From the NCBI RefSeq assembly GCF_024298765.1, contig NZ_CP101210.1: DNA of 64,000 nucleotides; one strand, 5' to 3'. A program made the translations under genes and the position numbers. How positions within the stretch are numbered: position 1 is the first letter of the stretch; the number at the start of each line of letters is the position of its first letter. Positions 789-23,878 of the stretch are shown one piece after another. The stretch comes from Escherichia coli (lineage in GTDB: Bacteria > Pseudomonadota > Gammaproteobacteria > Enterobacterales > Enterobacteriaceae). The notes below the pieces were generated by a model, which ran no database searches, had not been told where the DNA came from, and saw nothing but the letters and a program-made list of their open reading frames with translations.

Positions 789-796
789 CGCCGAAC

Positions 797-2431: not shown

Positions 2432-2449
2432 TGTTAGCGTTTATATCCT

Positions 2450-2483
2450 GTTTTAAATACAAAAGCCCCGCTGTCGGGGCTTG
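2450..2483 (-). terminator. Hairpin plus T-run between hsdR stop and hsdM start
   Basis: GCCCCG-CTGT-CGGGGC stem-loop (2465-2480) followed on the minus strand by a U-rich tract; lies in the 63-bp hsdR-hsdM gap. Confidence 0.35.
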
Positions 2484-2494
2484 TCATGTGCGTA

Positions 2495-5400: not shown

Positions 5401-5911
5401 GCAGCGCCAGTTCGCGCTCACGGCTTTCATCCTGAGCCCTGATTGCATCTTCCAGACGTTTTTCATCTGCACGACCTGAAGATTGTGTTAATGGAGGGAG
5501 TGTAAATTTGGGGCAGTCATCAACATTACCGTGGGCGTAGCGAACATACAGCCAAATTCCCAACAAATACGCTTCTTTGAGCAGCCAGTAAGTATCTTTA
5601 GCTTTGATACGTCCGCCGTGCGCGGCACGGTTGCCATGGATACGCAGCGCATCCATTTTCATGATGATGGCTTCCGGCATCATGCTGGTAAAGACATCAG
5701 CATTCATTAAATCGTAAAGATTAGCCTTAATACCTTCCGGCAACCGCTCCTGACGATACAACCAGCGCACCATCAATTCGGTGTAGTTGCGCAGCTTGAC
5801 CAGACAGCTTTCCGGATCGGAGTGAACATAGCGTTCCGCCATACACGCGAGTTCAGCCAGTTCCGGCCACTGGCTGCGCAACATTTCAAAATTGAGAGAC
5901 TGCTCCATCAA
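2495..5911 (-). CDS. hsdR: Type I restriction enzyme endonuclease/helicase subunit HsdR
   Basis: 1138-aa ORF; N-terminus MMEQSLNFEML resembles EcoKI-type HsdR; PD-(D/E)xK-like segment (DYVLWDE...VVEAKK), Walker A QATGTGKT and DESH helicase motifs. First codon in track is TTG; ATG is the second codon (5908). Confidence 0.9.
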   Translation of the reverse strand: MMEQSLNFEMLRSQWPELAELACMAERYVHSDPESCLVKLRNYTELMVRWLYRQERLPEGIKANLYDLMNADVFTSMMPEAIIMKMDALRIHGNRAAHGGRIKAKDTYWLLKEAYLLGIWLYVRYAHGNVDDCPKFTLPPLTQSSGRADEKRLEDAIRAQDESRERELALQRALQQEQEKAEHLTQRLNEARARNQHVADILSIDEAETRRRLIDSRLLAADWNVGEGLKNTDQVTQEHPVKEQPTATGDGYADYVLWDEAHKPLAVVEAKKTSVNAEQGRIQARLYADWLEKEYGQRPIIFYTNGYDIWLWDDHKTHGYPPRRVFGFYSKESLQYLIQQRETRLPLNSVPHVKDNEGKAVAGRLYQLETIARVSERFTNKYRQSLIVQATGTGKTRVAIALSKLMIDARWVKRVLFLCDRKELRKQAANAFNQFTNEPLYVVGKSKKADRQNARIYIATYPGMMKIMDHFDVGYFDLIIADESHRSIYNVYGDLFKYFDALQIGLTATPIDMVSKTTFGLFGCEGRIPTANYSLEDAIADNNLVPYEVVTHTTEFLREGIKREKLSDAQIRELEEQGIDPNTLEFDGKALDEAIYNKDTNRYILRNLMENGLKDRDGQLPGKTIIFARNHKHALLLNELFDDMYPQFAGRFCQVIDNYDPRAEQLIDDFKGLDESTNKELTIAISVDMLDTGIDVPEIVNLVFAKPVKSKVKFWQMIGRGTRLCPGLYGYDDNGKPLDKQKFRIFDHWGNFEYHELHTEEAEVTATKSLAQKRFEAWVMLGAAAQRKFDKQAVDLVAHQLREQINALDEKSIAVQEKWHQKAQYSDEKVLRQLSPKTQQDLLSVLAPLMQWLDVRGQSDAMRFDMDILAAQTARYTNPEELDVLWPVIVEKVERLPPHLAQVQQQGPRINQLRDLGWWKQASLEELEDIRIHLRGIMHLMEKDATPKFGSIQVDITEDANLIQTETRKTNIRSIDFKLYRQQVQGALEPLFQQNPVLKKIRNGEPVTQNELDELAKLVLIQNPNVDIRALKEFYPQATASLDKLLRTIIGMDSDAVEVRFAQFAADNSLTSQQLRFLSLLKNHIRDYGTIEMRQLFEQPFTHIHNEGVTGVFPDIEQIARLQKIVEELGVVTDAATV

Positions 5912-6004
5912 TCATCGCCTTATGTCGTGGATACAACAGCATTTCTGGAAAGAATATCACACTAATTTGGCCGACGAAGTGAGCCGGAAAGGGCGGAATT
6001 ACCA

Positions 6005-6337
6005 TTAATTCTCATATTTAAAGTCGATGTTTATTTTGAGTGTTTCAATATTCACAGTGACTTCGCAACCATGCCAGAATGGCTTTTCTTGTGATTTAAA
6101 GTTATCCACAAACAAATTTCTTAGTTCCACCAAAAGATCTAAAAGTCTTTCACTGGCATCTGCGGTTTCAGTGATCCAATGTTGATTGCCCTGTTTATCT
6201 ACATAGTCATAAGTAAACTCACCACAGTCGCTTTCCGGTTCTAACTTTGCACACAGAATGATTTTGACTGCATCACTAGGAGTGATCGATAGCAACACCG
6301 AACCAATGTCATTATAAATATCCTGATCAGAACGCAT
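6005..6337 (-). CDS. Putative CdiI-type immunity protein for the adjacent CdiA-CT nuclease
   Basis: 110-aa ORF whose ATG (6337-6335) overlaps the TAA stop of the toxin ORF (TAATG coupling); small acidic protein, AT-rich; position typical of cdiI. Confidence 0.55.
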   Translation of the reverse strand: MRSDQDIYNDIGSVLLSITPSDAVKIILCAKLEPESDCGEFTYDYVDKQGNQHWITETADASERLLDLLVELRNLFVDNFKSQEKPFWHGCEVTVNIETLKINIDFKYEN

Positions 6338-9300
6338 TATTTACCTCCGGGTGCATTGTTAAATACTTTTTCAATCGGGCGACCTCCATCTATCGAATAT
6401 ACTACTTTAAATTTAGCAGGTCTGACACTATCCCCAATATACGATGGCTGAATGTTGACCTTAACCTCTTTTCCTTCACCCAATGCTTTTGCCCAAGTAT
6501 TTTCCATCTGCTTCCAGGCTCCTTTGTTCAGATTTCCATCCATTGGAACAAGGTTCAATTTTTCACCAGGACCATTAAAAATACTGGCTATTAAATGACC
6601 ACCCTCATCTCCATCAAGGCCACACTTACCTGCTTTACATTGTTGATAGCCATTTCTATCCTTTACATTAGGACTAAGAGTTGCTTCAACCTGGCTTGGC
6701 CTTGCCTGAGCATCAGTTTTATAAATTTTATCACCATCTACATGATAAACTTTATTCGGCTGTGGGTTATTTAGCTCTTTGCTCCAGTTCCCTTTACCAC
6801 CTGAGTCTAGCATCAGCTTTTCAAGTGACTCCGCACTGATTTTCTGACCTGTCTGTTTTTCAACAGCCATTAGAGCCTTCAACTCTGACAACTCGCTGGC
6901 AGACATTTTACCAACCGCCGCTACTGTCAGGCCCGCTGGAAGAGCATCGCCAGCGACCATTTCCGCAACCCAGATACTAACTTCATTTGCACACAGCACA
7001 GTATTCGCACCACAGGCACTGACTGCTGCCTGGGCGGCTGCAATTGCTTCCGGAGTCAGAGCAATCACTACCCCACCTGTAGCCCCCCCAACAAGCGCTG
7101 CTGCAATCGCTTTGTTTACAGCCTCACCGCGTTTACATTCAGCCCCGCCAGGGTTAGTCGAGCAGGACGCAATATCTTTGCCATGCTCCTGCACGAACTT
7201 GGTCTGAGTGTCTTCATTACCACCCAGCAGGTTATTCTCAACAACATTCTTCCCAGCAGCAGCTCCGGTAGCCACACCCGCAGTATTCCCACCTGCAACA
7301 CCACCCGCCATACCTGCTGAGATACTCGCCAGCGTACTTAGCGTCTGCTTCTGGTCCTCGGTCAGCTTCGACAGGTCTTTCTCATCCGGATATAAAACCT
7401 TCGCGATTGCACCTGCGATAAGTTCACCGCTCACCGCACCGACTGAACCTGCTGCGGCATTATTTCCCTGAAGAGCCGCAGTCACACCGCCGAGAATGGC
7501 ATGAGCAATGGCTTTCGCTGCATCGTTATCATTAATTCCAGCATTGTGCCCTATGAAGTTTGCCAGTTCCGGTGCAGAAGCTCCGGCCAGAGCACCCGCT
7601 AAATTCCCCCCAGCCAGTCCCTGAAGCGCGGCTGTCGCGGCCTGGATACCCCGCTGCATATCGCTACCGGTACCATACTTTTCCTGTTCCTTTTTGTATT
7701 CCGGCGTATCACGCAGTTTTGCCAGATATGCCTGCCGCTGTTCTTCCGTCGTATCCGCCGGAACAGGCCCATATTTATCCTGCGCAGCCTTCAACGCATT
7801 CAGTTCACCCTGCGTCCGCGCGATATCCGCCACCTGACTGCCTATGTCACTGATAAGCCCCACTGTCTGCAGACGCCTCTGCTCTTTCTCCTTGTCAAAT
7901 ATCGGGCTGATACTGTCGTTGGCGTGTTCCGGGTCACGGCTCAGGTTCGCCAGATTCTGCTTCTGATTGTCCCTGTCCCGGATGGTGATAGTGCCTTCTG
8001 CCACTGCGGCCTGAGTCGTTCCTTCCGCATGTCCGCTGTGACCTCCGGCGGATATCATGCCACCCGGCATGTTACCCTGAAATTTATCCCCGAAGCTGCC
8101 ACCACCGCTCAGACTGATTCCACTGTGACTGACTTTATAATCCGCTTCGTTGTGAAGGTCACTGAACCCCAGCGTTCCGGTATCCAGGTGGTTTTTATCC
8201 GGTGTGGCAGTGGAGGCAATCACCGCACCATCCAGTTGGGTATGTTTACCCACTGTGATGTCGAAGCCGCCGTCACCGGCAAACATTCCGGTTTGTTCAG
8301 CAACGGAGTCAAAGCGGCTCTTCATCTTATCCCGGGAGGCAGCGATGTAACCTGAGCCGGTCATGGAGCCAAAGGTAAAACTGCCGCCGGCAGCCACGCT
8401 GGTCTGTTTACTGTCGTACTTACTGGTGTCCTGCTGGCTGCTTATCAGCAGGTCGTGGCCCACATCGGCGATAATCCTGTTGCCGTTGACCTGAGCACCG
8501 TTCAGTACCGTATCCCGACCACTGTTGATGGTGACGGTTTTACCGCTGTCTATTGTGGTTTCAGTCCACTCAGTACCGTTACCTTTCTCGCTGCCTTTTG
8601 CCGCATTAACGCTGGCAAAGACACTGATACCGGCACCGTTACCACCGGCACCGATACTGACACCCACGCCACCGCCACTGCTGCTGTTCCTGCCCGTTGT
8701 TTTTTGTGTGTTTGCCGCGCCACTCAACAGAACATCATTCGCAGCATCCAGGTTTGTGTTACCACCGGCCTTAAGCTGGCTTCCGGCAATCACAATATCT
8801 CCGCGGTTATCGCCCCTGTTTTTACCGGTTGCGACAACAGACAGATTATTCCCGGCATTCAGCGTACTGCCGGATACTGTGTCACTTTCAGAATGTTGTT
8901 GTGATTTCGATTTCTGGGTGGTGAGCGACAGGCTGACTCCCATCGCATTCGGGTCACCGGTTGCGGAGGCCATTGCCGCAGCCTGTCCGGCCTGCACACC
9001 AGACAGCGCTGTCTTTGTAGCCTGCAGGGTTTTCAGACGGCTGTCACTGCTCTCCTTCGTCTCCTGTGCACTGGTGACCGCATTATTGATGGCACTGCCC
9101 ACTGTGCCGGAAAGGGCAACCGTCAGCCCGCTTTTCTTCTGCTCAAATTTTTCGTCCACAGTACGACGGTCATGCCCCGGGTCAACCACCACACTGTCAC
9201 CGGTAATGCTGATATCCCGGTTCGCAATCACATCCGAACCGCTGATATGAGCCTGTTTGCCCGCGGTAATACTGACATTACCGGCAGTGGAGCCGATGGT

Positions 9301-9801
9301 ACTGGCACTCTGACTCTGCGTTGTCCCGGCCTCGCGGCGGTCGTGCGTTGTCTTACTGCTGCCAATGGTGAAGCCAATACCGCCGGTACCCATCAGACCG
9401 GATTTCTTCGTTTCCTTAAAGCGCCAGGACGTATCTGTACTGGTGGCAGCAAGAACATCAACATGGTTACCCGCCGCCAGTGACACATCCCGGTCAGCCA
9501 CCACATCCGAACCCTCTACCGTCAGGTTATCACCGGCGTTAACGGTCACGCGGTTCCCCGACAGCAGGGAGCCTGCTTCACGGGAGGCACTGTTCTCACT
9601 GATGGTGTGGGTGGTTTTCTTACTGAGAAAACCTCCGCTTTTTTTCTTCGTTTCCAGATAGTGATAGTCACTTTCTGTCGCCGTGGTCAGGGCGACATCA
9701 CGACCGGCATTCACACTGATATTGCCGGTTGCGGTAACGGATGACGCAACAGCGGTGATACGCATACTGAAGAGCATTCCGTATAAAGATTCAGCTGGCA
9801 A
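6337..9801 (-). CDS. cdiA: 5'-truncated CdiA (contact-dependent inhibition toxin) fragment: FHA-repeat region, pretoxin-VENN, C-terminal nuclease toxin domain
   Basis: Gly/Ser/Thr-rich filamentous-haemagglutinin-type repeats; [16 protein letters not shown]...AGKNVVENN pretoxin-VENN motif (VENN codons at 7231-7242); 297-aa CT with GHLIAS...[14 protein letters not shown] resembling the Serratia nuclease / Endonuclease_NS active-site region. No signal peptide or TPS domain; frame opens at a stop with TTG as first codon, no cdiB nearby. Confidence 0.8.
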
Positions 9802-10032
9802 AACTTTATCAGTCCATAAAAATCAACGGAAGCGCAGATGGTTCACACGTCCATTACCAACTGATTGTTGTCACAACCGGTAACACAAAGTACTGAACGA
9901 CTGTTTTTAACAGCGGTGTTGCGTCATCCACCACCGTGAAACAACGCTGTGCAGGGAATCGTCCGCATCCCCATAACGGTCAAACATCGTGGCGTTGACA
10001 GAATGACCGACGAAAAGCCAGAAAGCGCTGAT

Positions 10033-10581
10033 TCACTGAGCTGTAATCAATGTACAGCGCTGTACCGGACGATGGGTAATGGCGGTCACAACCGGTAACC
10101 CCAGAGACAATGCGACTGTTTTTAACGCAACATACTGACCGGATGTATCACCCCGGGCAACCCGAAAACACCTTTCCACCCGGCATTGTCCGCCAGCACT
10201 TATCACCTGCCAGCTATGTTGCAGTAAATCCACCACTTGCGAACATTGTTCATCAACTGTGACACAGGCTCGCGGGTGACAAATACTCGTCTGGCTGAGC
10301 AGCAACAGGCATCGAATTGTTGCTCCTCCATGTTGTTCCCGCAACCAGCGTAATACCACCGACGATGATGGACTGGCAGTGTGATTGCTCTCAGTAATAC
10401 GTTCATGCAGTTGTCGATAAAAGGAAGTACAGAATGCATGAATCTGTTGCCCGTTGATATTTCCTTCTGCCGAATGGAGTGTGAAGTAAAATGCCAGCAA
10501 ATGCGGCCAGTGGTCCACCGCCTGCTGAACAAAACGCCGGATGTCTCCCGGCTCTGAAATTAAGGCTTCGGTTATTTGCAC
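10033..10581 (-). CDS. Hypothetical protein (possible remnant at the cdiA truncation junction)
   Basis: 182-aa ORF with overlapping alternative frame; no recognisable motifs; low coding confidence. Confidence 0.2.
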   Translation of the reverse strand: MQITEALISEPGDIRRFVQQAVDHWPHLLAFYFTLHSAEGNINGQQIHAFCTSFYRQLHERITESNHTASPSSSVVLRWLREQHGGATIRCLLLLSQTSICHPRACVTVDEQCSQVVDLLQHSWQVISAGGQCRVERCFRVARGDTSGQYVALKTVALSLGLPVVTAITHRPVQRCTLITAQ

Positions 10582-11026
10582 GAAATGTTCCTTTTCAAAC
10601 CCTGTTGGATTTTGTCAAGACGGTACAGACACAGTAAAGCGCGCATCAACACCTGAAAGGTACGATACAAACACAAGTTACAAACAATAAGAACGGAAGG
10701 ACAATTAATCAGTGAGGAATAATAACTAAATTAACCAAAAGAATGTTACTGACAATACCACCAATACTTAAATAGCAATATATTAATTAATGTAAGAACA
10801 GATGCCCGGTAAGACATATACACAATACATCCACAAACACACTCTTTTCATTAAATAAATCACCTGATTAAACCATGAAAGTGTGATGTAAGTCAAAATT
10901 ACTGACACAATCAATTGATAATGATTATCTCTATCATTATCGTGAAATTCGAGAATGAAAGGAGAAGTAGTCATTATAAGTCTTTTATAAATCGTCATCA
11001 TCATAGTAAAGTAGAACACTTTTTAT

Positions 11027-11485
11027 ATGAGTTACTATATGAAAATATACTGGACAAGAAAAAACATTCCTGAACTTTCAGCACTTCCACCTTCATTAAG
11101 AAAGAAAAATTTTACTGACGCATATAATGCTGCATCTTCCCATATCGAATACTGGATAGGTGCTGGCGTCTCATTTATCTCGATGATGATTTTATTCAAA
11201 GTATATGACTTTCTTTTACCCGCCCAAGATACTTTCCCGGGTGATATCATAAGAAGTTTATGTGTTGTGTGTCCATCCATATTAATCTGGTTTCAGTTTT
11301 CGGTATATGTCATGAGGAAATATTACAGACATATTCTGGAACGAGGTAAGGAAACCGAAACCATTTCAGAAAGGTTGATACGTGAGGCTGATACACGAGA
11401 ATATGAATTATGGCGTCCGGCCCATCGCTTTTTCTCCATTATTCTATTAGTTTGCATTCATTCACTGATAACAACTATAAAATAA
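11027..11485 (+). CDS. Hypothetical small membrane protein (microcin-locus accessory)
   Basis: 152-aa ORF with ATG start, two or more hydrophobic segments; AT-rich, adjacent to the CPBP gene and microcin genes. Confidence 0.4.
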   Translation: MSYYMKIYWTRKNIPELSALPPSLRKKNFTDAYNAASSHIEYWIGAGVSFISMMILFKVYDFLLPAQDTFPGDIIRSLCVVCPSILIWFQFSVYVMRKYYRHILERGKETETISERLIREADTREYELWRPAHRFFSIILLVCIHSLITTIK

Positions 11486-11584
11486 AAGTTATGGCTGTTC
11501 TGATACAGGAAAATAAACGTTCATTCTATGGTTACCTCTTCCTGTTATATAAAAGAATTTTAAACAACAAGTAAGGGAATATAA

Positions 11585-12271
11585 ATGGAAATAACAAAAA
11601 ATAAAAATGCAACTATAAAAAAACAGTCATCAGCCGGCTGCTTTTCAATGTTTACTTTATCATTTTCCATTACCTTTATTCCTGCATTTCTTACAAACAG
11701 GCAGGAACTTATATCCAGGGGGCTTCTTGTTCCAGCATTATTTCTTGCTGAATTTCTAATTCTTGTTCCACTGTATTTTATTTTCTTCCGAAAAAGAGAA
11801 GGATTAGGAAGAGGTTCTTTTCGACTGGATGTTTTTTTTACTCTTTTCTCTTTAATAATGATTATTCAGTTATTTGTCCCTTATCTGCTGGCAGTGAGGA
11901 AAACGGAAGAATGGATGATCTCGCAAATGTCTTTTTCCGGGGCCATTTTATGGATTAATATATTTTCTTCCGTACTTCTTGTTCCTGTATATGAAGAGAT
12001 TGTATTTCGAGGGTGTCTTTTTAACTCTTTTAAATTCTGGTTTAATGACAATATTTACATCTCTGCTATTGTAACATCAGTCATATTTTCTGCATTACAT
12101 CTACAATATACTGACTTTCGTACATTTTTGATGCTCTTTCTGATATCGTTAGTTCTTATCAGTGCAAAAATAAAGTCGAATGGCCTGTTAATGCCCATAT
12201 TACTTCACATGGCGATGAATGCAGTCATAACAGGAATACAATATACGTTACAATATCACATAACAGTCTGA
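11585..12271 (+). CDS. CPBP-family (CAAX protease / Abi) intramembrane metalloprotease-like protein, putative bacteriocin self-immunity
   Basis: 228-aa polytopic membrane protein with family motifs EEIVFRG, FSALHL and LLHMAMN; ATG preceded by AAGGGAA Shine-Dalgarno. Confidence 0.75.
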   Translation: MEITKNKNATIKKQSSAGCFSMFTLSFSITFIPAFLTNRQELISRGLLVPALFLAEFLILVPLYFIFFRKREGLGRGSFRLDVFFTLFSLIMIIQLFVPYLLAVRKTEEWMISQMSFSGAILWINIFSSVLLVPVYEEIVFRGCLFNSFKFWFNDNIYISAIVTSVIFSALHLQYTDFRTFLMLFLISLVLISAKIKSNGLLMPILLHMAMNAVITGIQYTLQYHITV

Positions 12272-12695
12272 AATTGTTATTATGAGATATCTATAACACC
12301 TGAAGTTGGAAAAAGAAGCAAATAATTCCTTATAAGGAATCGTTTACTAATATATTTAGATGATCTCATATTTGTTTATGATATACATCTGATTAAGATA
12401 TAATGGATTATAAATTACTCAAAGGTGAACAAATATCTTCGCCTTTTCTCGTAGAAAGAGACTTGAAACTTATAATACATCTATATAAACGTGATTTAAA
12501 TCACGATTTGCAGTAAAAGCAATTGGTATAATTCATTGGTATTACTATTATTTCATCTATTGCACGAACTATTTTACAACAATAAAAAAGATATACAAAC
12601 AGCAAGAAGTAAAAATATTCGGATAAATAAAAATTTTTGCTACCTTGGTTTCTATAGTCTTTATTTCTAAGTTTTTCATAAGCACTCAAAGACTC

Positions 12696-12881
12696 ATGTA
12701 TAGGGACGGTTTAATAATGAAACTATTTTTTTATTTCTCGTTGTTCTTTATAATACAACTTATAAATTCAGACTTAGACACATTAACCCTTTATCTTTTC
12801 ATAAAGAAAATAATTCTTTCGTTACTTGCGAGTGTACTGTTTTTATTTGTTTTATCTTTCTTTAATAAAAAGAGGAAATAA
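12696..12881 (+). CDS. Putative microcin immunity protein (small hydrophobic membrane peptide)
   Basis: Hydrophobic ORF ending 1 nt before the microcin-like ATG; the track starts it at a TTG (12645); in-frame ATGs at 12696 and 12717; resembles MchI/McmI-class immunity peptides in size and position. Confidence 0.5.
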   Translation: MYRDGLIMKLFFYFSLFFIIQLINSDLDTLTLYLFIKKIILSLLASVLFLFVLSFFNKKRK

Positions 12882-12882
12882 C

Positions 12883-13206
12883 ATGAGAAATATAACAACC
12901 GATGAACTTGCTTTAATACATGGTGCAGGATTAGATAAAGATGCATCCGTTGCAATAGGTACTGCGGCTGGTGGTTTTTTAGGTAAAGCAACAAAAATCC
13001 CTGGTGCGGATATAGCAGGAAGTGCAATTGGAGGATATATTGGAGGAGTTATTGCTGATGGTTCAAATAGGACAATAACAATACCATCAAACGGTATTAA
13101 CTATAATCCGGGTATAGGACTTGGAAGTTTTAATCCAAACTACAATGGAGGTTTATTAAACTCAGGATTTAACTCATCAACATCCTCTTCTAGTAGTGGA
13201 AGTTGA
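12883..13206 (+). CDS. Class IIb (siderophore-type) microcin-like precursor, not assignable to a named microcin
   Basis: 107-aa ORF; leader MRNITTDELALIHGA|G of double-glycine type; Gly/Ala/Ile-rich core; C-terminal Ser-rich tail SSTSSSSSGS as in salmochelin-modified microcins; AAGAGG Shine-Dalgarno overlaps the upstream stop; convergent on mchF. Confidence 0.7.
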   Translation: MRNITTDELALIHGAGLDKDASVAIGTAAGGFLGKATKIPGADIAGSAIGGYIGGVIADGSNRTITIPSNGINYNPGIGLGSFNPNYNGGLLNSGFNSSTSSSSSGS

Positions 13207-13266: not shown

Positions 13267-15369
13267 CTAATTTGTAATTCTAAAAATCCGATCAACTGTT
13301 CTTAAAGTTGTCTCTCTATGTGCAATAATCACCCGGGTGATATTCATCTTTTTTATAGCAGCATTCACGAAACGTTCACTTTCTGTATCAAGAGAACTTG
13401 TAGCCTCATCCATAAATAATATTCCAGGTTTCCGGTATAAAGCTCGGGCAATGAATATACGCTGTTTTTGACCGCCGGAAAGACCTTCCCCCAGTTCACC
13501 TATTAACGTTTCATACCCCATTGGCATTTTCATTATCACATCATGAATATGACTTGCTCTGGCACATTCTGTCATCCATTCGTCGTCTGTTTCTTCTGCA
13601 AACCCACAGATATTTTCACGAATTGATCCTGAAAATAGCCGGTCGTCCTGCATAACACAGGCTATCATACGGTGATAATTATTTATTCCAAGTTGACGTA
13701 TATCCGTGCCATTAACCAGTACTTTTCCACTATCTGGTTCAAACAGTCCACATAATACTTTCATTAATGTGGTTTTTCCGGCACCGGAGGCACCAGTTAT
13801 AGCCACACTTTCTCCCGGAGCCACAGACAAATTCAGACCACTGAATACCTGTGCTGACTGGCTGTCATACCGGTAGCTTAAATCAGTGGTTTCCAGTGAA
13901 ACCGGGCTCATGTCAGCAACGATTTCAATTTCCGGTTTCTTTTCTTCCTTTTCATGTAGTGCAATATCTGCAATGCGCTCATTATGCAGACTCATTATTC
14001 TCAGTTGAAGAAGAAAACTGGTCAGCGAAGCAACCCGATCCGAAAACTGCCCACGAAAAGAACCAAATGCCACAAACATCCCTATTGTCATCTGATTATC
14101 GATCACAAGGCTTGCACCCAGCCATAAAATCGCCACCTGATCACAGGCGGCAACAAAAGTATTTATCCCCCCGAAGAGCAAATCCATCCTGGTTAACTTA
14201 ATACCTGAATTGATCGCATCTATTTTCAGGTTAAGCCAGTGTGTTCCCCGAATCCCAGCCATACCCTGGATTTTTACCGTGGCAATACCATACAGGCTTT
14301 CCATAAAATAGGAGCTGGCCCGGGCCCCCCTGACAAGAGTTTCTTCCGATATTTGCCGGTAATAGCCGTATGTCACCAGACGAATAAGAACGTAAACCAT
14401 GGTAAAACCGAGCACTATCCAGGTAAGATATCCTCCATATAACAGCATCATCACAAAAACACCCACAACCATAATACTGTCCATGATTGCCCCAACAACA
14501 CAGGTGGTAAAGGTGGCCCTCAAAGTGTCAAGGGAGCCAAAACGCGACTGGATATCACCTAATTTACGGCGTTCAAAAAACGCCAGCGGCAGTCTGAGAA
14601 GATGGTTAAACAGACCCGACTGCCACTGTATATTGATGAGCGTGCTCATAACCAGTGAGGACCATGCACGCAGCATACTCACCGCGGCCCTGAGCAATAT
14701 AAAGAACATCAGGCCAGCAGAAATAAGCGTCAGCAGCCCTCTGTCCCCCGCCGGAATCGCATGATCCATAACCAGCTGAGTTCCCACCGGCATTACCAGA
14801 TTGATTGCTTCAATTACAACTGACAGACAGAAAATTTTCGCCAGTGTTCTTTTAATACCGTAAATACTGTTAATCAGTGAACGGAGACTTATGCGGGTCT
14901 GCTGGGTTTCCGCCAGGAATTCACTTCCGGGCCAGACCTCAAGTGCAATGCCCGTAAAATACCGGCTCATTTCCTCCCGACCGAGATATCTTCTGCCTCT
15001 GGCCGGATCATGCAGTACATAACGGTTACGCTTTACGCTGACCAGCACGACGAAGTGACTGAAATCCCAGTGGAGAATACACGGCATTTTGAGGGCACCA
15101 AGTTCATCCAGCTCCAGTGAAAGAGCCCGGGTGACCATCCCCAGCTGCTCCGCTATTCCATTGATTCCTGCAAGGTTTGCTCCACGGGCCGAGAGATTAA
15201 ACTTCCGGCGAAGAGATATCAGGTCAATATTCTTACCAAAATGACCGCATATCATTGCCAGGCAGGCCAGTCCACATTCAGCGGTCTCCGTCTGATGAAT
15301 AACCGGAACACGACGTCGCCAGCGCATATCAAGCTGATTTATAATTTGTCTGAAATTCCCGTTAGTCAT
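13267..15369 (-). CDS. mchF: Microcin ABC exporter with N-terminal C39 peptidase domain (CvaB/MchF family)
   Basis: C39 peptidase motif [15 protein letters not shown], six TM segments, Walker [13 protein letters not shown] signature LSGGQKQR. Track start 15387 is GTG; ATG at 15369 gives [10 protein letters not shown]. Confidence 0.9.
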
Positions 15370-16636
15370 TGAGCGGTCCTGTTGCACTGTGTTTCATGTC
15401 ATAGAAAGGAGAAAGCATCCACTGGTAAATACGCCTTTTTTCCAGAAATAGTGTACTTTCGGCTTTCATTCCATTTTCCAGAGGGAGGTATTTTTCGTCA
15501 TATCTGATAATCTGCTTTTCAGGCATCGCAATGACTTTATACCAGGGAACAGAGTCGCCCGGCGTATTCTGTGGTGCTCCCTTATAGGTCAACATTTCCT
15601 GTGTTGACGCAGGAGTCCTGGATATAGTTTTAACCGTAGCAGAGAACTGCCCAAATTTTTCTGCCGGAAAGGCTTCATAACGAATATTCACTTTGTCACC
15701 AGCCGAAATATAAGGAACAGCATCATTCGGGACCCAGAGAATAAGATAATAGTTTTCAATGTTCTCAGGAATAACCTGCAGAAGGCTGTCTCCGGTATTG
15801 ACCATTTGCCCGACAGTGACACTCAAGGAGTCAACTTTCCCGTCAGTCAACGCCCGGATAATGATTTCGCCCTCCACATCAGTGTTAACCAGTTCTTTCT
15901 GTAACTCATACCGTTGCAGTTCCATCTGGTAGATACGGTTATCAAAATCTGCAGCCTGAGTCTGAATCTGACTCTCCAGAGTGGTTATCTGCAGGGCATT
16001 CTGTTCGTTCTGTCCGCTCAGGCTGAGAAGATTGTTTTGTTGCTGATAATATAATGCCACCTGGTTAGTTAACTGATCTTTATTAATCAGCCCTTTTGCC
16101 TGATAGTTTCTGTAATTCTCCATATTGTTTTTCATTATTTTTATCCCTTCCTCTGCACGCTGTATAATATCTGATGAGCGACGAAACGCATCTGTGTATT
16201 GCAGGCGTTGTTTTTCCAGGGTATCTAGCGTTATTTTTTTACTTTCTTCCAGACGGGAAATAATGTTGTCCACACGAACCAACTGGTTTTCTATATCCCG
16301 ACGATGATTATCAGTGACAATACCACTACGTGTACTTTTACTGATGTCAATCAGATAAACAGGATCCCCTTTTTTTATCAACTGTCCTTCATGAACAAAC
16401 TGCCTGACAACAAATCCCTGTACACCTGAATATATATTGACAGCTCTTGGCCAGGTTGTGACCTCACCACTGACATTAACACGGCGGCTATAGGTACCAA
16501 CAATAATGAACATCAGAAATGCCGTAATAAACACTATGCTTCCCAGCATGATTAACCATAGTGGTATTCCGGGAAGTAATATTGCCCGTCCCTGCCACTT
16601 CATTTTTCTGTTTTCTAAAGCATCCTGACGAAACAA
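15362..16636 (-). CDS. mchE: Microcin secretion membrane-fusion protein (CvaA/MchE, HlyD family)
   Basis: 424-aa [30 protein letters not shown]..., single N-terminal TM plus coiled-coil; overlaps mchF start by 8 bp; first codon is TTG. Confidence 0.9.
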
Positions 16637-16788: not shown

Positions 16789-17241
16789 CTACGTTTTATG
16801 CAGCCGCTCAGGGATGTATGTCACAATTTTCTTTCGCCTGCTTAACCATCGTACTTCTCCTTCTCCCCATGGCTGAAGCTGTATGAGATAGTCAATAACT
16901 TTTCGACCAAAGCCTGGTTTACAACAGAAATCCAGAATCCAAATCCTTCCATCTTCATTCCATTCAGACGGATGCAACCTGAATTCTGGATCCCTGAGCA
17001 GGCGCGCTTCTGTATCAGCCTCAAGATATGCCCAGGTAATATACGCCAGTGGAAAACCTCGTGAATCAAACAGGAATTTAATCTGATTATGCTGTATCGC
17101 ATATTCAGTCCAGTATTGAATGGTTAACACCGGATACAGACTGTAATTACGATTGTAGAGCATACAACTGACCGCAAAACCGATCTGTTCATAAACAGTC
17201 CATTCATCTTTTCCTCTGATGTTTTCCCTTATATAAGACAT
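16789..17241 (-). CDS. mchD: Microcin maturation protein MchD (MceI-like, HlyC-type acyltransferase family)
   Basis: 150-aa ORF with ATG start directly downstream of mchC; HlyC/toxin-activating acyltransferase-like sequence. Confidence 0.75.
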   Translation of the reverse strand: MSYIRENIRGKDEWTVYEQIGFAVSCMLYNRNYSLYPVLTIQYWTEYAIQHNQIKFLFDSRGFPLAYITWAYLEADTEARLLRDPEFRLHPSEWNEDGRIWILDFCCKPGFGRKVIDYLIQLQPWGEGEVRWLSRRKKIVTYIPERLHKT

Positions 17242-17266: not shown

Positions 17267-18817
17267 TTACACTGTGTTTCTTATCGGTTCAAGATATCCA
17301 AATGCATCTCTGGAAAACTTAAGCATAAAATTTTTCATATCAGAAATTGCTTCTTGTAAAAAAAGGGGATCATCGCCATGATTATCCAGCAGGATGGCAA
17401 TTTTTTCGCACATATTCTCTTTCCTCAGCTCTTCCCTGGGTTGCAGCCTTTTCATGGTATGATGTTCAATTTCTTTCAGGAGTAATGAGGCATTTATCTG
17501 ACGTCTGGTACTGCCTTGCGTCAGCCAGTGGATGGCCTGGGAAAAACACTGTTGTGCAACGGTGAAATAAACATCATTCTTGATGCTACTATTCAGTGCC
17601 TGCTTTTGATTATGCCTATGATGGATTAGCGTCACAACCAACTTTTGCAATGGTGAACCATCCTGATTGACAATATCTTGGGCATGTGATTTCTCGCAGT
17701 ATTGATTGAGTAATGCAACAAAACTGTTAACCAGTTCTTTCAATATATCAGGTATCTCTTTTTGTGTTATAAATTCTCCAGGAATACCCAACAGTTCTAG
17801 ATAACAGTAATAACATGCTTCATGAAAAGTTTTCTGAAATATCTCCTCAACCTTCAAACGGGCTGCAAGAGTGAAGTCAGGGTCAAACATATATTTTCCG
17901 ATATACAAGCAGAGATCAGACAGCCCTTGCATAAGTACCATCGGTTCTTTTGCCAGTTCAGCTAATCTTAGTTTATACCCAAAATCAGCTGGGGAATCTC
18001 CCGGAAACAGACAACTGAGTCCGCTAAAATCCATTAATCTGCCATCCATTGCAATATTAGAAGGAGAAGTTGTCAATCTCAGGAAACGTGTTCGACAAAA
18101 TGCCATTTGCCAGGCCTCACGACGTGCCAGTTCACATAACCCCTCAATGCAATAAATCCGGGGATCAGTTCGTGCTTCAGCATCAATTTCTTCCGGTGGT
18201 ACAGGTAGATATCCTGGCAGCTTGTGGATCACAGATCTAACCCGACAGGCATCGTGAATTAACAGACTGGAATACTCCGGTTTTACTTGGAAGTAAGGTG
18301 CCCGTTCAAAATGCGCCGGACGAACAACAGGCTCACGTACCAACAGGGCTCTTCGTGATTTCCTACCGGAGCGCTCAAATGCCTTTTCAGTATAGAGATC
18401 TGTAAGTAAAACCGCCCGAACCCGCACAGCACTATAAGGTAATATTTGAGCCAGTACTTCTCCCCACAAAGCCTCATATATTGCATGAACAGCGCCGAGT
18501 GCACCATTAGAATGACGTTCGTCAGTACCTTCGCCAACCAACGGATTACTTCCTATTCCTTTAACCTGGTAGTTACCATCAAACCCACAACGTGCACCAC
18601 CTCCATTACGCTGAATACCACTGCCACCATAGCGCTCTGCATGGAACACTTTGGCAGAAGCTGTACTGCCAGGATCGATAATATAACTGCAGGCATTTTG
18701 CAGCTCGTCTGGATTTCTGACATCCTCTGCACACCAGATTAATGAGGCCTTGATCTGCCTGGCAGTGAAAGGCACCAGGTTTTCATTCAGTTCAGAAAGT
18801 GAACACTGATGACTCAT
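17267..18817 (-). CDS. mchC: Microcin maturation protein MchC (MceJ-like)
   Basis: 516-aa ORF with ATG start, immediately downstream of mchB in the mchIBCDEF order. Confidence 0.8.
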   Translation of the reverse strand: MSHQCSLSELNENLVPFTARQIKASLIWCAEDVRNPDELQNACSYIIDPGSTASAKVFHAERYGGSGIQRNGGGARCGFDGNYQVKGIGSNPLVGEGTDERHSNGALGAVHAIYEALWGEVLAQILPYSAVRVRAVLLTDLYTEKAFERSGRKSRRALLVREPVVRPAHFERAPYFQVKPEYSSLLIHDACRVRSVIHKLPGYLPVPPEEIDAEARTDPRIYCIEGLCELARREAWQMAFCRTRFLRLTTSPSNIAMDGRLMDFSGLSCLFPGDSPADFGYKLRLAELAKEPMVLMQGLSDLCLYIGKYMFDPDFTLAARLKVEEIFQKTFHEACYYCYLELLGIPGEFITQKEIPDILKELVNSFVALLNQYCEKSHAQDIVNQDGSPLQKLVVTLIHHRHNQKQALNSSIKNDVYFTVAQQCFSQAIHWLTQGSTRRQINASLLLKEIEHHTMKRLQPREELRKENMCEKIAILLDNHGDDPLFLQEAISDMKNFMLKFSRDAFGYLEPIRNTV

Positions 18818-19088: not shown

Positions 19089-19316
19089 TTAGCTACCGCC
19101 ACCAGCAGAAGAACTGGCACTACCACTTCCCACGGTCGAGCCAATTGCTGTTGTCAAACCGGCAGATACGGCTCCAACTACAACCCCAAGTGGACCACCA
19201 GGTATTCCGGCGAGAGCTCCAACAATAGCTGCAGCACCTGCAGCATTAGCTGAAGTCGCTGGCGCACCTCCCGCCCCGGAAATATATCTTAACTGTGATT
19301 CTGTTATTTCTGGCAT
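19089..19316 (-). CDS. mchB: Microcin H47 precursor
   Basis: 75-aa ORF MPEITESQLRYISGAGGAPATSANAAGAAAIVGALAGIPGG...GSGSASSSAGGGS: double-glycine leader, Ala/Gly-rich core and Ser-rich tail matching MccH47 as I recall it (recalled residue 2 is R, here P). Confidence 0.9.
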   Translation of the reverse strand: MPEITESQLRYISGAGGAPATSANAAGAAAIVGALAGIPGGPLGVVVGAVSAGLTTAIGSTVGSGSASSSAGGGS

Positions 19317-19343
19317 ATAAACTGCATATAAACTCCATCATAT

Positions 19344-19553
19344 TTAACTTCCGTTTTTCCAGTCTGACCAGACCAGAATCCTTCGAATCCCATGAATCAG
19401 CTCAATAAAACCAAGAAATATTATAAAGCTTAGAAAAACGTCAACATAAGAATTCCCTTCGCCAACAATCCGAAGGGATGAAAGTGAAACCAATAAGATA
19501 GTAATAGGTAAACTGAATATAGCCGTCAATTGGGACAGTTTTTTATAACTCAT
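19344..19553 (-). CDS. mchI: Microcin H47 immunity protein
   Basis: 69-aa hydrophobic two-TM peptide immediately upstream of mchB; ATG start. Confidence 0.85.
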   Translation of the reverse strand: MSYKKLSQLTAIFSLPITILLVSLSSLRIVGEGNSYVDVFLSFIIFLGFIELIHGIRRILVWSDWKNGS

Positions 19554-19964
19554 TAATCCCTACCTGTTGCTTTATTTTCATTATGAAAAGTTACCAAATC
19601 TTAGCACCTCAGTCAGGAGAGTCAGGTCATCGATAAAGAATATTCCAGTAGAGTGGCGCTCATGATCAAAGATAACAGCAAAGTTGATGACAGTGCTGAC
19701 CGACTGTCATTTACAGAAACCCTGTTTGTAGCAAATTCCATCTTACCTGACCTCACCCAGACAAAGACAAAAGAGAATGATTGTTATTTACTTTTCAAAA
19801 AAAGTGTCATATTGTCCATATAAAGTCAAGAGGTATTTTACGTTATGTCACTGATGCAATTGTTAGTCAGGATCTCATGGTTGTCGCTCATGTATAACCT
19901 GAGACTTGAACGCACACTAATAGCGCTGACGGTCATACATCGGGAAATGTGAGGAGGCATAAGA

Positions 19965-20210
19965 ATGAATTGTGATAATAATCACAGAAATGAAGAATTC
20001 ATTGTTACCTTTGATAAAGGCAACAAGCAAGACAATTCAAGACGAAAACACGATAATTTTCCTATAGAGGTAGAATCCTCCGTAGAGCAGGAGACACACT
20101 GTATCACAAATAATAAGTCAGCTTCCGGTATAGTAACACATGACTATGATGCCGATTATATTTGTGGTTGTGGTGAAATTATGTGTCCTGGTTGCGGTCA
20201 TGACCTATAA
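19965..20210 (+). CDS. mchS4: Small Cys-rich protein, mchS4-like
   Basis: 81-aa ORF with strong GAGGAGG Shine-Dalgarno 8 nt upstream; C-terminal CGCGEIMCPGCGH cluster; position matches mchS4 in the H47 locus order as I recall it. Confidence 0.5.
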   Translation: MNCDNNHRNEEFIVTFDKGNKQDNSRRKHDNFPIEVESSVEQETHCITNNKSASGIVTHDYDADYICGCGEIMCPGCGHDL

Positions 20211-20365
20211 CAAACATTTTTGCAAACTGATACCTGATCAGGTACAAGCCTGTTGATTATTATGCTGAATATTTCATGTTATAAAACCATCGATATAAAC
20301 ATTAACAAGAAAAAACATATATTGTTTATCTGAACATTTATCGATGGAAAACCAAAGGGGAAAGT

Positions 20366-20800
20366 ATGTATCTTACGAAAAAGATTATAATAAGTATGAT
20401 GTTTATATTACCATCTGCTGCATTTTCATCAGATCCACCTCCCCTTCAACAATCGTTAGAAAAAACAACCTATTTTTCTATAGGTATGAATGGGTTTATA
20501 GGCTATCAGAGCGAAGGGGAAAAATTATACACACACATTCTTACATTAGATAATCCCGAAGAGATATTTAAAAATATAATAGAAAATAGAAAGTCAACTA
20601 AGGAGTCTAAAATTTATGCTGCTTGTGGGCTATATTATTTAAACGTAGAAAATATAGAGTCATTGTTTAATGAAAATGATAAACAAGAATATATGTCTGT
20701 CTTAAGAGGGGATATTTTAACAAAAATAAAACTGAATGATATTCTGAATTCTGTGATAATAAATGGTTGCAACACCAAATTAATATCTGAACATAAATGA
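20366..20800 (+). CDS. mchS3: Signal-peptide protein upstream of the I47-like microcin gene (candidate mchS3)
   Basis: 144-aa ORF with N-terminal signal peptide MYLTKKIIISMMFILPSAAFS; AAAGGGG Shine-Dalgarno; sits where an immunity gene would be expected. Confidence 0.5.
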   Translation: MYLTKKIIISMMFILPSAAFSSDPPPLQQSLEKTTYFSIGMNGFIGYQSEGEKLYTHILTLDNPEEIFKNIIENRKSTKESKIYAACGLYYLNVENIESLFNENDKQEYMSVLRGDILTKIKLNDILNSVIINGCNTKLISEHK

Positions 20801-20816
20801 GCAGGAGGTTTTTAAA

Positions 20817-21053
20817 ATGAGAGAAATATCAGATCACATGCTTGATTTCGTGAAAGGAGGGATGAATCTTAATGGATTACCTAGTTCTACTAATGTAATA
20901 GATCTACGAGGAAAAGATATGGGAACATATATTGATGCTAATGGAACATGCTGGGCTCCGGGTACTCCATCCATCATCATGTATCCGGGGGGAAGTGGAC
21001 CTTCTTATAGTATGAGTAGTTCCACATCCAGCGTAAACAGCGGCACATCATAA
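20817..21053 (+). CDS. mchS2: Microcin I47-like precursor
   Basis: 78-aa ORF MREISDHMLDFVKGG|MNLNGLPSSTNVIDLRGKDMGTYIDANGTCWAPGTPSIIMYPGGSGPSYSMSSSTSSVNSGTS: double-glycine leader, Ser-rich tail; closely resembles MccI47 as recalled; GCAGGAGG Shine-Dalgarno. Confidence 0.75.
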   Translation: MREISDHMLDFVKGGMNLNGLPSSTNVIDLRGKDMGTYIDANGTCWAPGTPSIIMYPGGSGPSYSMSSSTSSVNSGTS

Positions 21054-21337: not shown

Positions 21338-22612
21338 ATGATACCTATGAAAAACTATCTTTTCCAGACTCCCGAAGATATTTGTGTACAGTTAAAAAAA
21401 ATGACACATCCTGTCACAATAAGAACAACAGATATTGCTAATTTCTGGCACTATCTTGAGTCAGCAACACTTCCAGTGATCACAAAAAGCACCACTACAG
21501 AAAATCGGGAGGTTACATTTCTGTGGCGCTCAGAGAAAGCACTGCAAGGCGTATATCTTCGCCTGAATCGTGTTACAGATAAAAAAGACGTCAAAAAAGG
21601 ACTAATGACTCATATCCCTTCGACAGATATCTGGATGCTGACACTGGTGTTACCAGCTTCATATCGGGGCTCATACTCATTTATAGAAATTCCCACAGAT
21701 ATGACACAAAAAGACATATTTCAACTAGGAAGTCGCTTCTCTCCATTACCCGGTAAATCTGATCCATTTAACAAAACAGCAGAAATAAATATACGAGGAT
21801 TCGGAGAATCAGTCCTTTCTCTTGATATGGCTCCTGAACAAAAGGAATGGGATGATACTTCCCATAAATGTACAGGTATTCTTTCAATATTACATTCCTT
21901 TGTTGCAGGATATCAACGCCGGATTCGTTTATATTTCCCCCTGAATCCAACATCAGTACCTCTTGGATTACTTGTGTTACCTGATGCTGAAACATGGTTT
22001 GACCGGATAGATATTACCCGGGCATTAGATATGGCCATCACCACTGGTCGTATCACGCCAATGGCAATTATGGGGATAGACAATATTAATGAATCTGATC
22101 GTATGAATATACTGGGAGGCAATAAAGAACTCATCTTTGATATAGCGGAAAATCTGATACCCCAGTTATACAGAGACTATCCGGATATCGTATGGGCTGG
22201 TCGCTCTAATACTGTACTGGCCGGGCAGAGCCTCGGTGGAGTGACAGCACTGATGGCAGCTATATATGCGTCGACAACATTTGGTACAATCATTAGTCAC
22301 TCACCTTCAATGTGGTGGAACCCTGACCAGGGCAGCCCGATCTTGTTTACTGAGAATAATACCTCCTGGGTAAGTGAGCAGATACTTTCAGCGCCTCCGA
22401 AAGATGTAAATATCCGACTTGGAGTCGGTTCTTTAGAAGGTACAACCGTCTCACATGTTCAGCGATTGCATCATTCGTTAATCGCAGCTGGTTTGGAAAG
22501 TAACCTCACTGTCTATACCGGTGGTCACGATTATGCTTGGTGGCGCGGAGCAATTATTGATGAATTAGCAAATTATAATTGCAGGAAGGTATCAAATAAT
22601 AACTCTGTGTAA
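21338..22612 (+). CDS. mchS1: Enterobactin/salmochelin esterase homologue (IroD/Fes-like)
   Basis: 424-aa ORF with serine-hydrolase motif GQSLGG; position between mchS2 and mchA in the H47 locus. Confidence 0.8.
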   Translation: MIPMKNYLFQTPEDICVQLKKMTHPVTIRTTDIANFWHYLESATLPVITKSTTTENREVTFLWRSEKALQGVYLRLNRVTDKKDVKKGLMTHIPSTDIWMLTLVLPASYRGSYSFIEIPTDMTQKDIFQLGSRFSPLPGKSDPFNKTAEINIRGFGESVLSLDMAPEQKEWDDTSHKCTGILSILHSFVAGYQRRIRLYFPLNPTSVPLGLLVLPDAETWFDRIDITRALDMAITTGRITPMAIMGIDNINESDRMNILGGNKELIFDIAENLIPQLYRDYPDIVWAGRSNTVLAGQSLGGVTALMAAIYASTTFGTIISHSPSMWWNPDQGSPILFTENNTSWVSEQILSAPPKDVNIRLGVGSLEGTTVSHVQRLHHSLIAAGLESNLTVYTGGHDYAWWRGAIIDELANYNCRKVSNNNSV

Positions 22613-22753: not shown

Positions 22754-23878
22754 CTACAATTGTTTCCCGTTGTTTTTTAATTTTCTCATCAAAACCTCTG
22801 CGATCTCTGCAGGAGTGGGTTGTTCAGCCATTTCAGCGGCTACCTGATCTGAACAGAAGCGTAGTGAATCATCATAAAGCAGGCGATTTACCAAATCACT
22901 GGTCAGTCCATGCTTGTCCGGAATAATCCCACACCCACGCTTCGCAACAATTTCTGCATTAACAGAGCGATCTGCACCTTCTCCAAACACAATCTGTGGT
23001 ATTCCACTATACAGCGCTGTCAGGGTATTACCTGCGCCACCGTGATGAATAAATCCATCAGCTCCATTAAGGAATACACCCATAGGTATCCAGTCAACCA
23101 GACGTACATTTGATGGTAGTTTTCGTAATCCAGTACGAGCATTTATTGCAAGTTGCAAAATGATATCAGCATCAACTTCATTTGCTGAATCCATAACCCA
23201 TGAAATCAGCTCCAGACCATCAACCATTGGTTTTACAGTGCCAAGGCTGATGAGTAAACGTTTCCGATCAGAATCCCTGTCCCACCATGTTTCCTTTACA
23301 GCACCTCCGTTATAAGGAATATATCGCATTGAGATAATCGGTTCTTCAGCATTTTTAAGAATGCTCATACTTGGGGGAGCAACATCAATCCATGCTAAAT
23401 CACATAGTGGACCGCTGACTCCATGCCGCCTGTAAGCATTGCTTAAAGAACGGTTTAACATCTGAATATGGGCAGATGTATGCGCGAATCCAACAGCCAG
23501 CATCACTGAAGAAATTCTATATTTAGCAGCAACCAATGGGCCTGCCGGACCAAGCGGGGGATAGACTATTAAATCTGGCCTCCATTTTCCTGCAAAATCG
23601 ATGAGGTTATCTGCCATTTCATCGCTAAAAAAAGAGAAATGACCAATAATATTACTTTTTTTCCTCAACTCTTCCTGATGACGATATCCAGCCTCTGAAT
23701 CTAAACTTGGAGCTGCATCAAAAACAACCAGTCCAGCTTCTGCTGCTTTATTCGCGAATTTGCCAGCGCTACTAATTACTACATCATGTCCGATTACACG
23801 AAAGGCCTGAGCCAGAGAAATCAATGGGTATAACAAACCGTACAGCGGAGGGCCAATAAAAAGAATACGTTTTCGCAT
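22754..23878 (-). CDS. mchA: Enterobactin C-glycosyltransferase homologue (IroB-like)
   Basis: 374-aa GT-B glycosyltransferase-like ORF (MRKRILFIGPPLYGLLYP..., C-terminal HHGGAGNT nucleotide-sugar motif). Confidence 0.85.
   Translation of the reverse strand: MRKRILFIGPPLYGLLYPLISLAQAFRVIGHDVVISSAGKFANKAAEAGLVVFDAAPSLDSEAGYRHQEELRKKSNIIGHFSFFSDEMADNLIDFAGKWRPDLIVYPPLGPAGPLVAAKYRISSVMLAVGFAHTSAHIQMLNRSLSNAYRRHGVSGPLCDLAWIDVAPPSMSILKNAEEPIISMRYIPYNGGAVKETWWDRDSDRKRLLISLGTVKPMVDGLELISWVMDSANEVDADIILQLAINARTGLRKLPSNVRLVDWIPMGVFLNGADGFIHHGGAGNTLTALYSGIPQIVFGEGADRSVNAEIVAKRGCGIIPDKHGLTSDLVNRLLYDDSLRFCSDQVAAEMAEQPTPAEIAEVLMRKLKNNGKQL

Follow-up and report, generated by a model that had tools for sequence, protein, structure and literature searches.

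The mchS4 locus

The open reading frame at 19965-20210 of the window (the whole 64,000-nucleotide stretch of Escherichia coli DNA analysed here) is, with near certainty, mchS4 of the microcin H47/I47 genomic island. Its product is identical to UniProt entry Q712P8, 'MchS4 protein', in 80 of 81 positions; Q42L is the sole difference. Originally the gene had been named by position alone. The match to Q712P8 therefore confirmed this positional guess by sequence. The gene itself was already known and the present one is an allele of it. The exact protein of the window (Q42 allele) was found on more than 1000 contigs of a public collection, where it clusters with Q712P8. Open reading frames and family matches for every neighbour placed mchS4 between mchX and mchS3. 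Family scans and the RefSeq annotation of an identical region gave the island order mchF-E-D-C-B-I-X / S4-S3-S2-S1 / mchA, with the following features:

13267-15387, minus strand: mchF
15362-16636, minus strand: mchE
16789-17241, minus strand: mchD, HlyC family
17267-18817, minus strand: mchC
19089-19316, minus strand: mchB
19344-19553, minus strand: mchI
19622-19741, minus strand: mchX, 39 aa from the ATG at 19741 (the list of open reading frames gives a GTG start, 19622-19756)
19757-19964, no strand: space between mchX as listed and mchS4 (223 nt, 19742-19964, when measured from the mchX ATG at 19741)
19773-19791, minus strand: Fur box, GTAAATAACAATCATTCTC on the mchX strand, 14/19 to the consensus (consensus scan)
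19951-19957, plus strand: Shine-Dalgarno sequence GAGGAGG, 7-nt spacer to the mchS4 ATG (direct reading)
19965-20210, plus strand: mchS4 coding sequence, ATG start, 81 aa plus stop (list of open reading frames and match to Q712P8)
20157-20207, plus strand: family-defining tail Y65-L81, YICGCGEIMCPGCGHDL (alignments)
20239-20252, plus strand: weak terminator-like hairpin (consensus scan; its 5-bp stem and poor T tail are not evidence of termination)
20366-20800, plus strand: mchS3, NCBIfam MchS3 family
20817-21053, plus strand: mchS2, MccI47 precursor
21338-22612, plus strand: mchS1, enterobactin-esterase homologue (Pfam Enterochelin_N and Esterase)
22754-23878, minus strand: mchA, glycosyltransferase

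The 81-codon frame encodes MNCDNNHRNEEFIVTFDKGNKQDNSRRKHDNFPIEVESSVEQETHCITNNKSASGIVTHDYDADYICGCGEIMCPGCGHDL. The protein starts with MNCDNNHRNEEFIVTFDKGNKQ, ends with GCGHDL and has a mass of 9.1 kDa, a pI of 4.8 and a GRAVY of -0.90, i.e. it is acidic and strongly hydrophilic. It contains six Cys, five His and no Trp, and a signal peptide is absent. The hydrophilic 81-aa protein of the original prediction was thus recovered with its sequence, as was the C-terminal cysteine cluster, CGCGEIMCPGCGHDL in the translation of 19965-20210. The very strong ribosome-binding site was borne out as well: GAGGAGG, 7 nt before the ATG, is present as a single copy when both strands of the 64-kb window are scanned. 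The shorter AGGAGG occurs at nine sites, two of which lie 4-10 nt 5' of an open reading frame of at least 50 aa, those of mchS4 and mchS2. The G+C content of mchS4 is 37% vs 41% for the cluster. Just within the 5' end of the frame, at 19971-19986, there is an imperfect 16-nt palindrome, TGTGATAATAATCACA, which is invariant in all alleles and matches the Fur consensus in 12/19 positions. It could be a second weak Fur site or merely constrained coding sequence. A search of 19300-20900 against Rfam gave no RNA family.

The original prediction had put mchS4 at the head of an accessory operon. By position this is supported, as mchS4 comes first in the plus-strand string mchS4-mchS3-mchS2-mchS1, a putative operon. 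However, the gap between mchS4 and mchS3 is 155 nt and holds the weak hairpin, and PMC6071977 describes mceE, the homologue in Klebsiella, as monocistronic. Of seven siderophore-microcin clusters, six have a member of the same family as the first gene on the strand with the esterase and/or glycosyltransferase genes, and at locus L020 a 52-aa homologue lies 40 nt upstream of esterase-glycosyltransferase genes.

An 801-bp region of this locus was found in 291 of 5426 complete E. coli genomes and was chromosomal in every case. MchB, the microcin H47 precursor (19089-19316, minus strand), carries Pro at residue 2 (MPEITES...), a change in the leader peptide which it has in common with strain ACN002; most genomes read MREITES.... 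The 78-aa product of mchS2 (20817-21053, plus strand) is a divergent allele of the microcin I47 precursor and differs from the alleles at L003-L005 by about seven substitutions and one extra C-terminal residue. This gene has a perfect AGGAGG upstream and lacks PGAP annotation in the identical ACN002 sequence. The island flanks correspond to 1-13200 and 24000-64000 of the window. One contains a fragment of CdiA (contact-dependent inhibition), a type I restriction-modification system and a CPBP-family mcmM-like gene, the other AlpA/CP4-like mobile-element genes followed by the core cadCBA-dtpC-lysS-dcuS-fumB region. The IS2 element downstream of mchA in ACN002 is absent from the window.

The MchS4/MceE family and its cysteine tail

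A single-sequence search of a 5.8-billion-protein index retrieved near-identical E. coli copies and frameshift variants only. An exhaustive phmmer search against 1.84 billion representatives gave no relative beyond these, and tblastn against plasmids and phages, as well as a search of GTDB species representatives, yielded no further homologue. The large matches P0023 and P0024 were rejected as repeat-summation artefacts. The family was reached by another route, from homologues of MchC/MceJ to their genomic contexts and from there to the small proteins at the mchS4 position. These end in an MchS4-like extreme C-terminus. The tail of Klebsiella MceE reads ...NYICGCGCESCCGCGHDL, that of the Salmonella protein is the same, a Raoultella relative has ...EYICGCGCDCCCGCGHDL and a K. 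oxytoca relative ...EYICGCGCACCCGCGHDF. A profile built from five members retrieved about 40 sequence clusters, the MchS4 cluster with an E-value of 1e-20. All clusters with a named source belong to Enterobacterales (E. coli, Klebsiella, Salmonella, Raoultella, Cedecea, Rouxiella, Dryocola).

In the family alignment (29 sequences, 52-134 aa) C67, G68, C69, G70, C74, G76 and C77, in MchS4 numbering, are invariant in 29/29 members. They form the core CGCG-x3-C-x-GC at the extreme C-terminus, and GCGHDL is the usual carboxy end. Conservation is loose at the N-terminus (MN[CGS].K.H[KR]), and the middle part differs strongly between members. Of all members MchS4 is the poorest in cysteine, with four in the tail vs six to seven in its relatives; E71 and P75 occupy positions that are Cys in most of these. 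The family was not found in three more distant MchC-containing clusters and is therefore not essential for siderophore-microcin systems. A cluster of Brenneria goodwinii (L018, 3991-9569) lacks an MchS4-like gene. In it, an EntF-like NRPS of 1337 aa (C-A-PCP-TE) and the start of the MchC homologue overlap by 4 nt. To all appearances this cluster carries its own siderophore-assembly enzyme instead of a booster of the host pathway.

Sequence searches of Pfam, NCBIfam and PDB with MchS4, MceE, the family profile and the tail alone gave no relative. The homology check that went with the original prediction has led to a family, MchS4/MceE, which was found through genomic context. AF2 modelled MchS4 with a pLDDT of 34 without an MSA and of 54 with the 29-member MSA; the latter model had no secondary structure and no folded knuckle. 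From these models MchS4 is best described as a putatively disordered acidic protein which carries a compact C-x-C-x4-C-x2-C(-x-H) cluster.

Several known protein classes were considered and rejected. The zinc-ribbon-like fold, which had been put forward for the cysteine cluster, was not sustained: there is a single compact CxC...CxxC cluster within 11 residues, no zinc-ribbon family of Pfam or NCBIfam matched, and the AF2 model with MSA had no strands. Nor is it a rubredoxin-type knuckle (CxxCG ... CPxCG). The CPGCG motif is confined to MchS4, as position 75 outside MchS4 is Cys in most members and Ser or Phe in a few of the 29 aligned sequences, and a second CxxC knuckle is absent. An MbtH-like protein was rejected because neither PF03621 nor any other Pfam family matched at E <= 0.01 or at E <= 1, and because Trp is absent. 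MbtH-like proteins depend on conserved Trp residues.

Does the frame at 19965-20210 encode a protein under selection? Doubt could arise from its annotation, since PGAP calls it in just 1 of 10 fetched RefSeq loci, from the failure of single-sequence searches to yield a homologue and from the occurrence of frameshifted variants. Against this stands the pattern of variation. The gene is intact in 10/10 alleles examined and varies among eight E. coli alleles at 3/246 sites (1.2%), the lowest value of the locus, vs about 3.9% in the rest of it (Fisher p = 0.02) and 7.1% in the downstream gap. The divergent neighbour mchX is among the most variable coding segments (10/135 sites, 7.4%, in eight E. 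coli alleles). Across genera the Cys motif is kept via synonymous codons. At nine loci each of the seven invariant residues is encoded by two to four synonymous codons; both TGT and TGC are used at each invariant Cys and three to four codons at each invariant Gly. Whole-gene dN/dS was about 0.3 in three orthologue pairs. The perfect Shine-Dalgarno sequence, the presence of Shine-Dalgarno sequences at the homologues too, and the recurrence of the exact protein on more than 1000 contigs point in the same direction. In addition, mchS4 was kept intact in the decayed islands of Nissle and CFT073, which have lost mchS3-S1 and mchA. Judged from the aligned sequences, the cysteine tail is the constrained element of mchS4, and MchS4 is a translated, selectively maintained small acidic protein. 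A real and functional product is very probable.

In truncated islands of the Nissle/CFT073 type an additional gene for DAHP synthase, c1220 (1528-2562 in the CFT073 locus L010, 8988-10022 in the Nissle locus L007), is located about 3 kb away from the intact mchS4. Fur represses c1220 directly, and in a fur mutant its derepression is about 147-fold (PMC7157518). The encoded DAHP synthase is a second island function and could supply the synthesis of catechol siderophores.

Divergent mchX and the Fur box

In 9/9 loci the MchS4-like gene has a divergent neighbour that encodes an MchX/MceX-like peptide. The peptide C-terminus is ...ALIMTATLLEYSLSMF, with ...LLEYSLSMF across the nine. Between the two genes lies the Fur box, which in the window is upstream of both, at a distance of 192 nt from the mchS4 ATG and 32 nt from that of mchX. 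The Klebsiella MccE492-type locus has exactly the same box sequence. A box with 13-15/19 matches was present in eight of the nine loci, 125-216 nt upstream of the MchS4-like ATG; in the ninth, L019, the region covered was cut short. In the alignment, the conserved core of the intergenic region consists of the Fur box and the mchX-side promoter.

In CFT073 a Fur ChIP-seq peak of height 625 is located at 1176371 (PMC7157518 supplement). This position maps to about 19778 in the window, i.e. on the Fur box. Fur binds the mchX-mchS4 box in vivo in CFT073. In the same study the fur mutant showed about 12-fold derepression of mchBCDEF (PMC7157518). The CFT073 locus tag c1226, which denotes mchS4 or mchI, shares this Fur peak. 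For Klebsiella, PMC6071977 describes in vivo binding of Fur to the mceE/mceX intergenic region and a second Fur box which overlaps the mceE promoter. Upstream of mchS4 nothing corresponds to this promoter-overlapping box of Klebsiella and Salmonella, which scores 13/19 and lies about 47 nt before the ATG at L011 and L013; the best proximal match in the window is 12/19. On the mchS4 side a sigma-70 scan gave no match of at least 9/12, and a relaxed scan reached 8/12 only. Fur control of mchS4 itself is plausible, going by the arrangement of the region.

The divergent MchX-like/MchS4-like pair with a Fur box (14-15/19) was also observed in a second setting, on two metagenome/Logan contigs (L022, 8753-9405; L021, 5192-5792). 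The neighbouring operon there encodes an AMP-forming ligase, a PLP-dependent decarboxylase of the Orn/DAP type, a protein of no known kind, an ABC exporter and a free-standing condensation domain. The exporter is without a C39 peptidase domain, MchC and MchD are absent at this operon, and the surroundings are a mobile-element context with ArdC/DUF1281.

Proposed role and comparison with known systems

In the H47 system enterobactin overproduction has been credited to mchS4, with the mechanism unknown, according to secondary sources that cite Azpiroz & Lavina 2004 (PMID 15047525), among them PMC6071977. The same accounts report the phenotype for mchS4 alone, without the microcin maturation genes. 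The original statement that the biochemical role is unknown agrees with this literature. Enterobactin is, according to the literature, the precursor of the catecholate moiety which is attached to the microcin by MchA, MchS1, MchC and MchD.

From the phenotype and the cysteine tail we propose, tentatively and at somewhat less than an even chance, that MchS4 is a metal-binding small protein which relieves Fur repression and so supplies enterobactin for microcin maturation. Together with nearby His and Asp, the four invariant cysteines could build a compact site that accommodates Fe, an Fe-S cluster or Zn. Either by capturing metal or by contacting Fur itself, MchS4 would lessen the repression of the ent regulon by Fur-Fe, and the producer would then make enough enterobactin to mature microcins through the MchA/MchS1/MchC/MchD pathway. 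The mchX-mchI-mchB operon is likewise Fur-repressed, so the action of MchS4 would reinforce microcin expression too. The parts of this proposal do not stand equally firm. That the tail binds metal is somewhat more probable than not; that MchS4 acts through Fur or the iron pool is possible, yet on the unlikely side. Points against the proposal are the AF2 model without a knuckle, the lack of a PDB match, the four tail cysteines vs six to seven in relatives, and the lack of a proximal Fur box and of a convincing sigma-70 promoter at mchS4.

The main rival among the alternatives ascribes the enterobactin overproduction largely to Fur titration: clones of mchS4 that include its upstream region bring the strong Fur box along, and this DNA in multicopy would derepress the ent regulon, and the MchS4 protein would be real and have another role, for example in regulating the microcin genes together with MchX. 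Such titration has a precedent in fragments of about 240 bp from the mceE/mceX intergenic region, which were FURTA-positive on pACYC184, i.e. titrate Fur in vivo (PMC6071977), and the mceX box in the MccE492-type cluster has the same sequence as the one at 19773-19791. The strong CFT073 peak on the box speaks for titration as well, and the pairing of mchS4 with mchX in all nine loci fits a shared regulatory job. However, the secondary sources name the gene mchS4 itself, which suggests that overproduction was lost when the gene was disrupted. The product matters, as its conservation at the protein level shows, and the natural system is chromosomal and single-copy, with the frame intact even in decayed islands. 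This reading is unlikely.

In another alternative, MchS4 acts directly on biosynthesis as a small accessory subunit or chaperone of enterobactin or maturation enzymes and raises flux in the manner of MbtH; EntF, other Ent enzymes, the MchA glycosyltransferase and the MchS1 esterase would be candidate partners. MbtH-like proteins act on NRPS adenylation domains, and the family members, at 52-134 aa, are within the size range of NRPS accessory proteins. Gene order gives some support, i.e. the common direction with esterase and/or glycosyltransferase genes in six of seven clusters, the spacing of 40 nt in L020, and the position of the L021/L022 members beside a different operon with an adenylating enzyme and a condensation domain. 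This has to be set against the lack of any Pfam or NCBIfam match, MbtH included, the missing Trp and the predicted disorder of the body. Moreover, the phenotype was ascribed to mchS4 alone, without maturation genes, and the Nissle and CFT073 islands retain mchS4 while lacking mchS1 and mchA. A direct biosynthetic role is accordingly improbable.

Still less can be said for the idea that MchS4 gives rise to a Cys-rich peptide that is modified or secreted, e.g. a RiPP or a metallophore-like product. A conserved C-terminal 'core' behind a variable N-terminal part would suit a precursor, as would the location in a peptide-antibiotic island with an ABC exporter and the operon with AMP-ligase, decarboxylase, condensation domain and ABC exporter near the L021/L022 members. 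The original prediction had considered a modified-peptide substrate, which now appears very unlikely: the protein is strongly hydrophilic and acidic without a signal peptide, and the window cluster has no cyclodehydratase, MNIO, radical-SAM or other Cys-modifying enzyme. As a class IIb (siderophore) microcin precursor MchS4 was rejected since, unlike MchB and MchS2, it has neither a double-glycine leader of about 15-19 aa nor a Ser-rich C-terminus for siderophore attachment. The chance that the frame is spurious or decaying is practically negligible; this reading is effectively refuted because the motif is conserved through synonymous codons, and a genetic phenotype has been published.

To return to the metal and Fur proposal, a wider version of it would see MchS4/MceE and MchX/MceX as a portable, Fur-gated two-gene cassette. 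In it, the partner with the Cys tail would sense iron or metal and counteract Fur repression; as it would itself be repressed by Fur, such an 'anti-Fur' would give positive feedback. The pair would have been attached horizontally to different secondary-metabolite operons, namely to siderophore-microcin clusters and to the operon with AMP-ligase, decarboxylase, condensation domain and ABC exporter. Taken as a whole this is speculative and has a low probability.

Siderophore-microcins, e.g. those of strain Nissle 1917, are under development as narrow-spectrum antibacterials, and their activity needs the enterobactin supply of the producer. mchS4 is the sole island gene linked to this supply; its mechanism has been blank for two decades and the gene is often absent from RefSeq annotation. 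If it is true that MchS4 antagonises Fur, a global iron regulon would be open to modulation by a small, horizontally mobile protein. The C-terminal similarity of MchS4 and MceE is already noted in one sentence of PMC6071977. Added here are an explicit family definition with its invariant residues and the protein-level selection on them, the universal pairing with mchX and the Fur box, the mapping of the in vivo Fur peak to this box, and the cassette beside a different biosynthetic operon. The alignment offers C67, C69, C74 and C77 as residues to mutate, MchX as a conserved partner, and the Fur box 192 nt upstream as a confound.

Among known systems, MbtH-like proteins such as E. coli YbdZ resemble MchS4 in their small size, their tie to enterobactin output and the siderophore-related biosynthetic genes in their neighbourhood. 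They differ in that MchS4 has no PF03621 match, no Trp and a Cys-rich tail. In CopY-type repressors and in yeast Mac1/Ace1, binding of Zn(II) or Cu(I) to C-terminal CxCx4CxC metal-thiolate motifs switches the activity of the regulator. MchS4 shares with them a compact Cys cluster starting with CxCx4C at or near the C-terminus and an adjacent His. The spacing is different, CxCx4CxxC in MchS4 and CxCx4CC in most members, and a DNA-binding domain is missing; compared with solved structures, the family profile and the tail had no sequence or profile similarity.

The nearest counterpart is MchS4 of E. coli H47 and CA46 (Q712P8; Azpiroz & Lavina 2004), which has the same position between mchX and mchS3 and the same island architecture; besides Q42L nothing material differs. 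MceE of the Klebsiella pneumoniae microcin E492 system, the function of which is called 'undefined' in a 2020 review (PMC7680869), is longer (114 aa vs 81) and has six tail cysteines vs four, and with about 33% overall identity it is undetectable by phmmer. According to PMC6071977, mceE has its own FURTA-positive Fur box over its -10, to which mchS4 has no counterpart. The two proteins are alike at both ends, with the tail YICGCG...C.GCGHDL and the N-terminus MNC/G.K.H. Like mchS4, mceE is divergent from its partner gene, mceX, across a region that holds the identical Fur box, and its strand continues with a microcin/immunity pair and an esterase gene.
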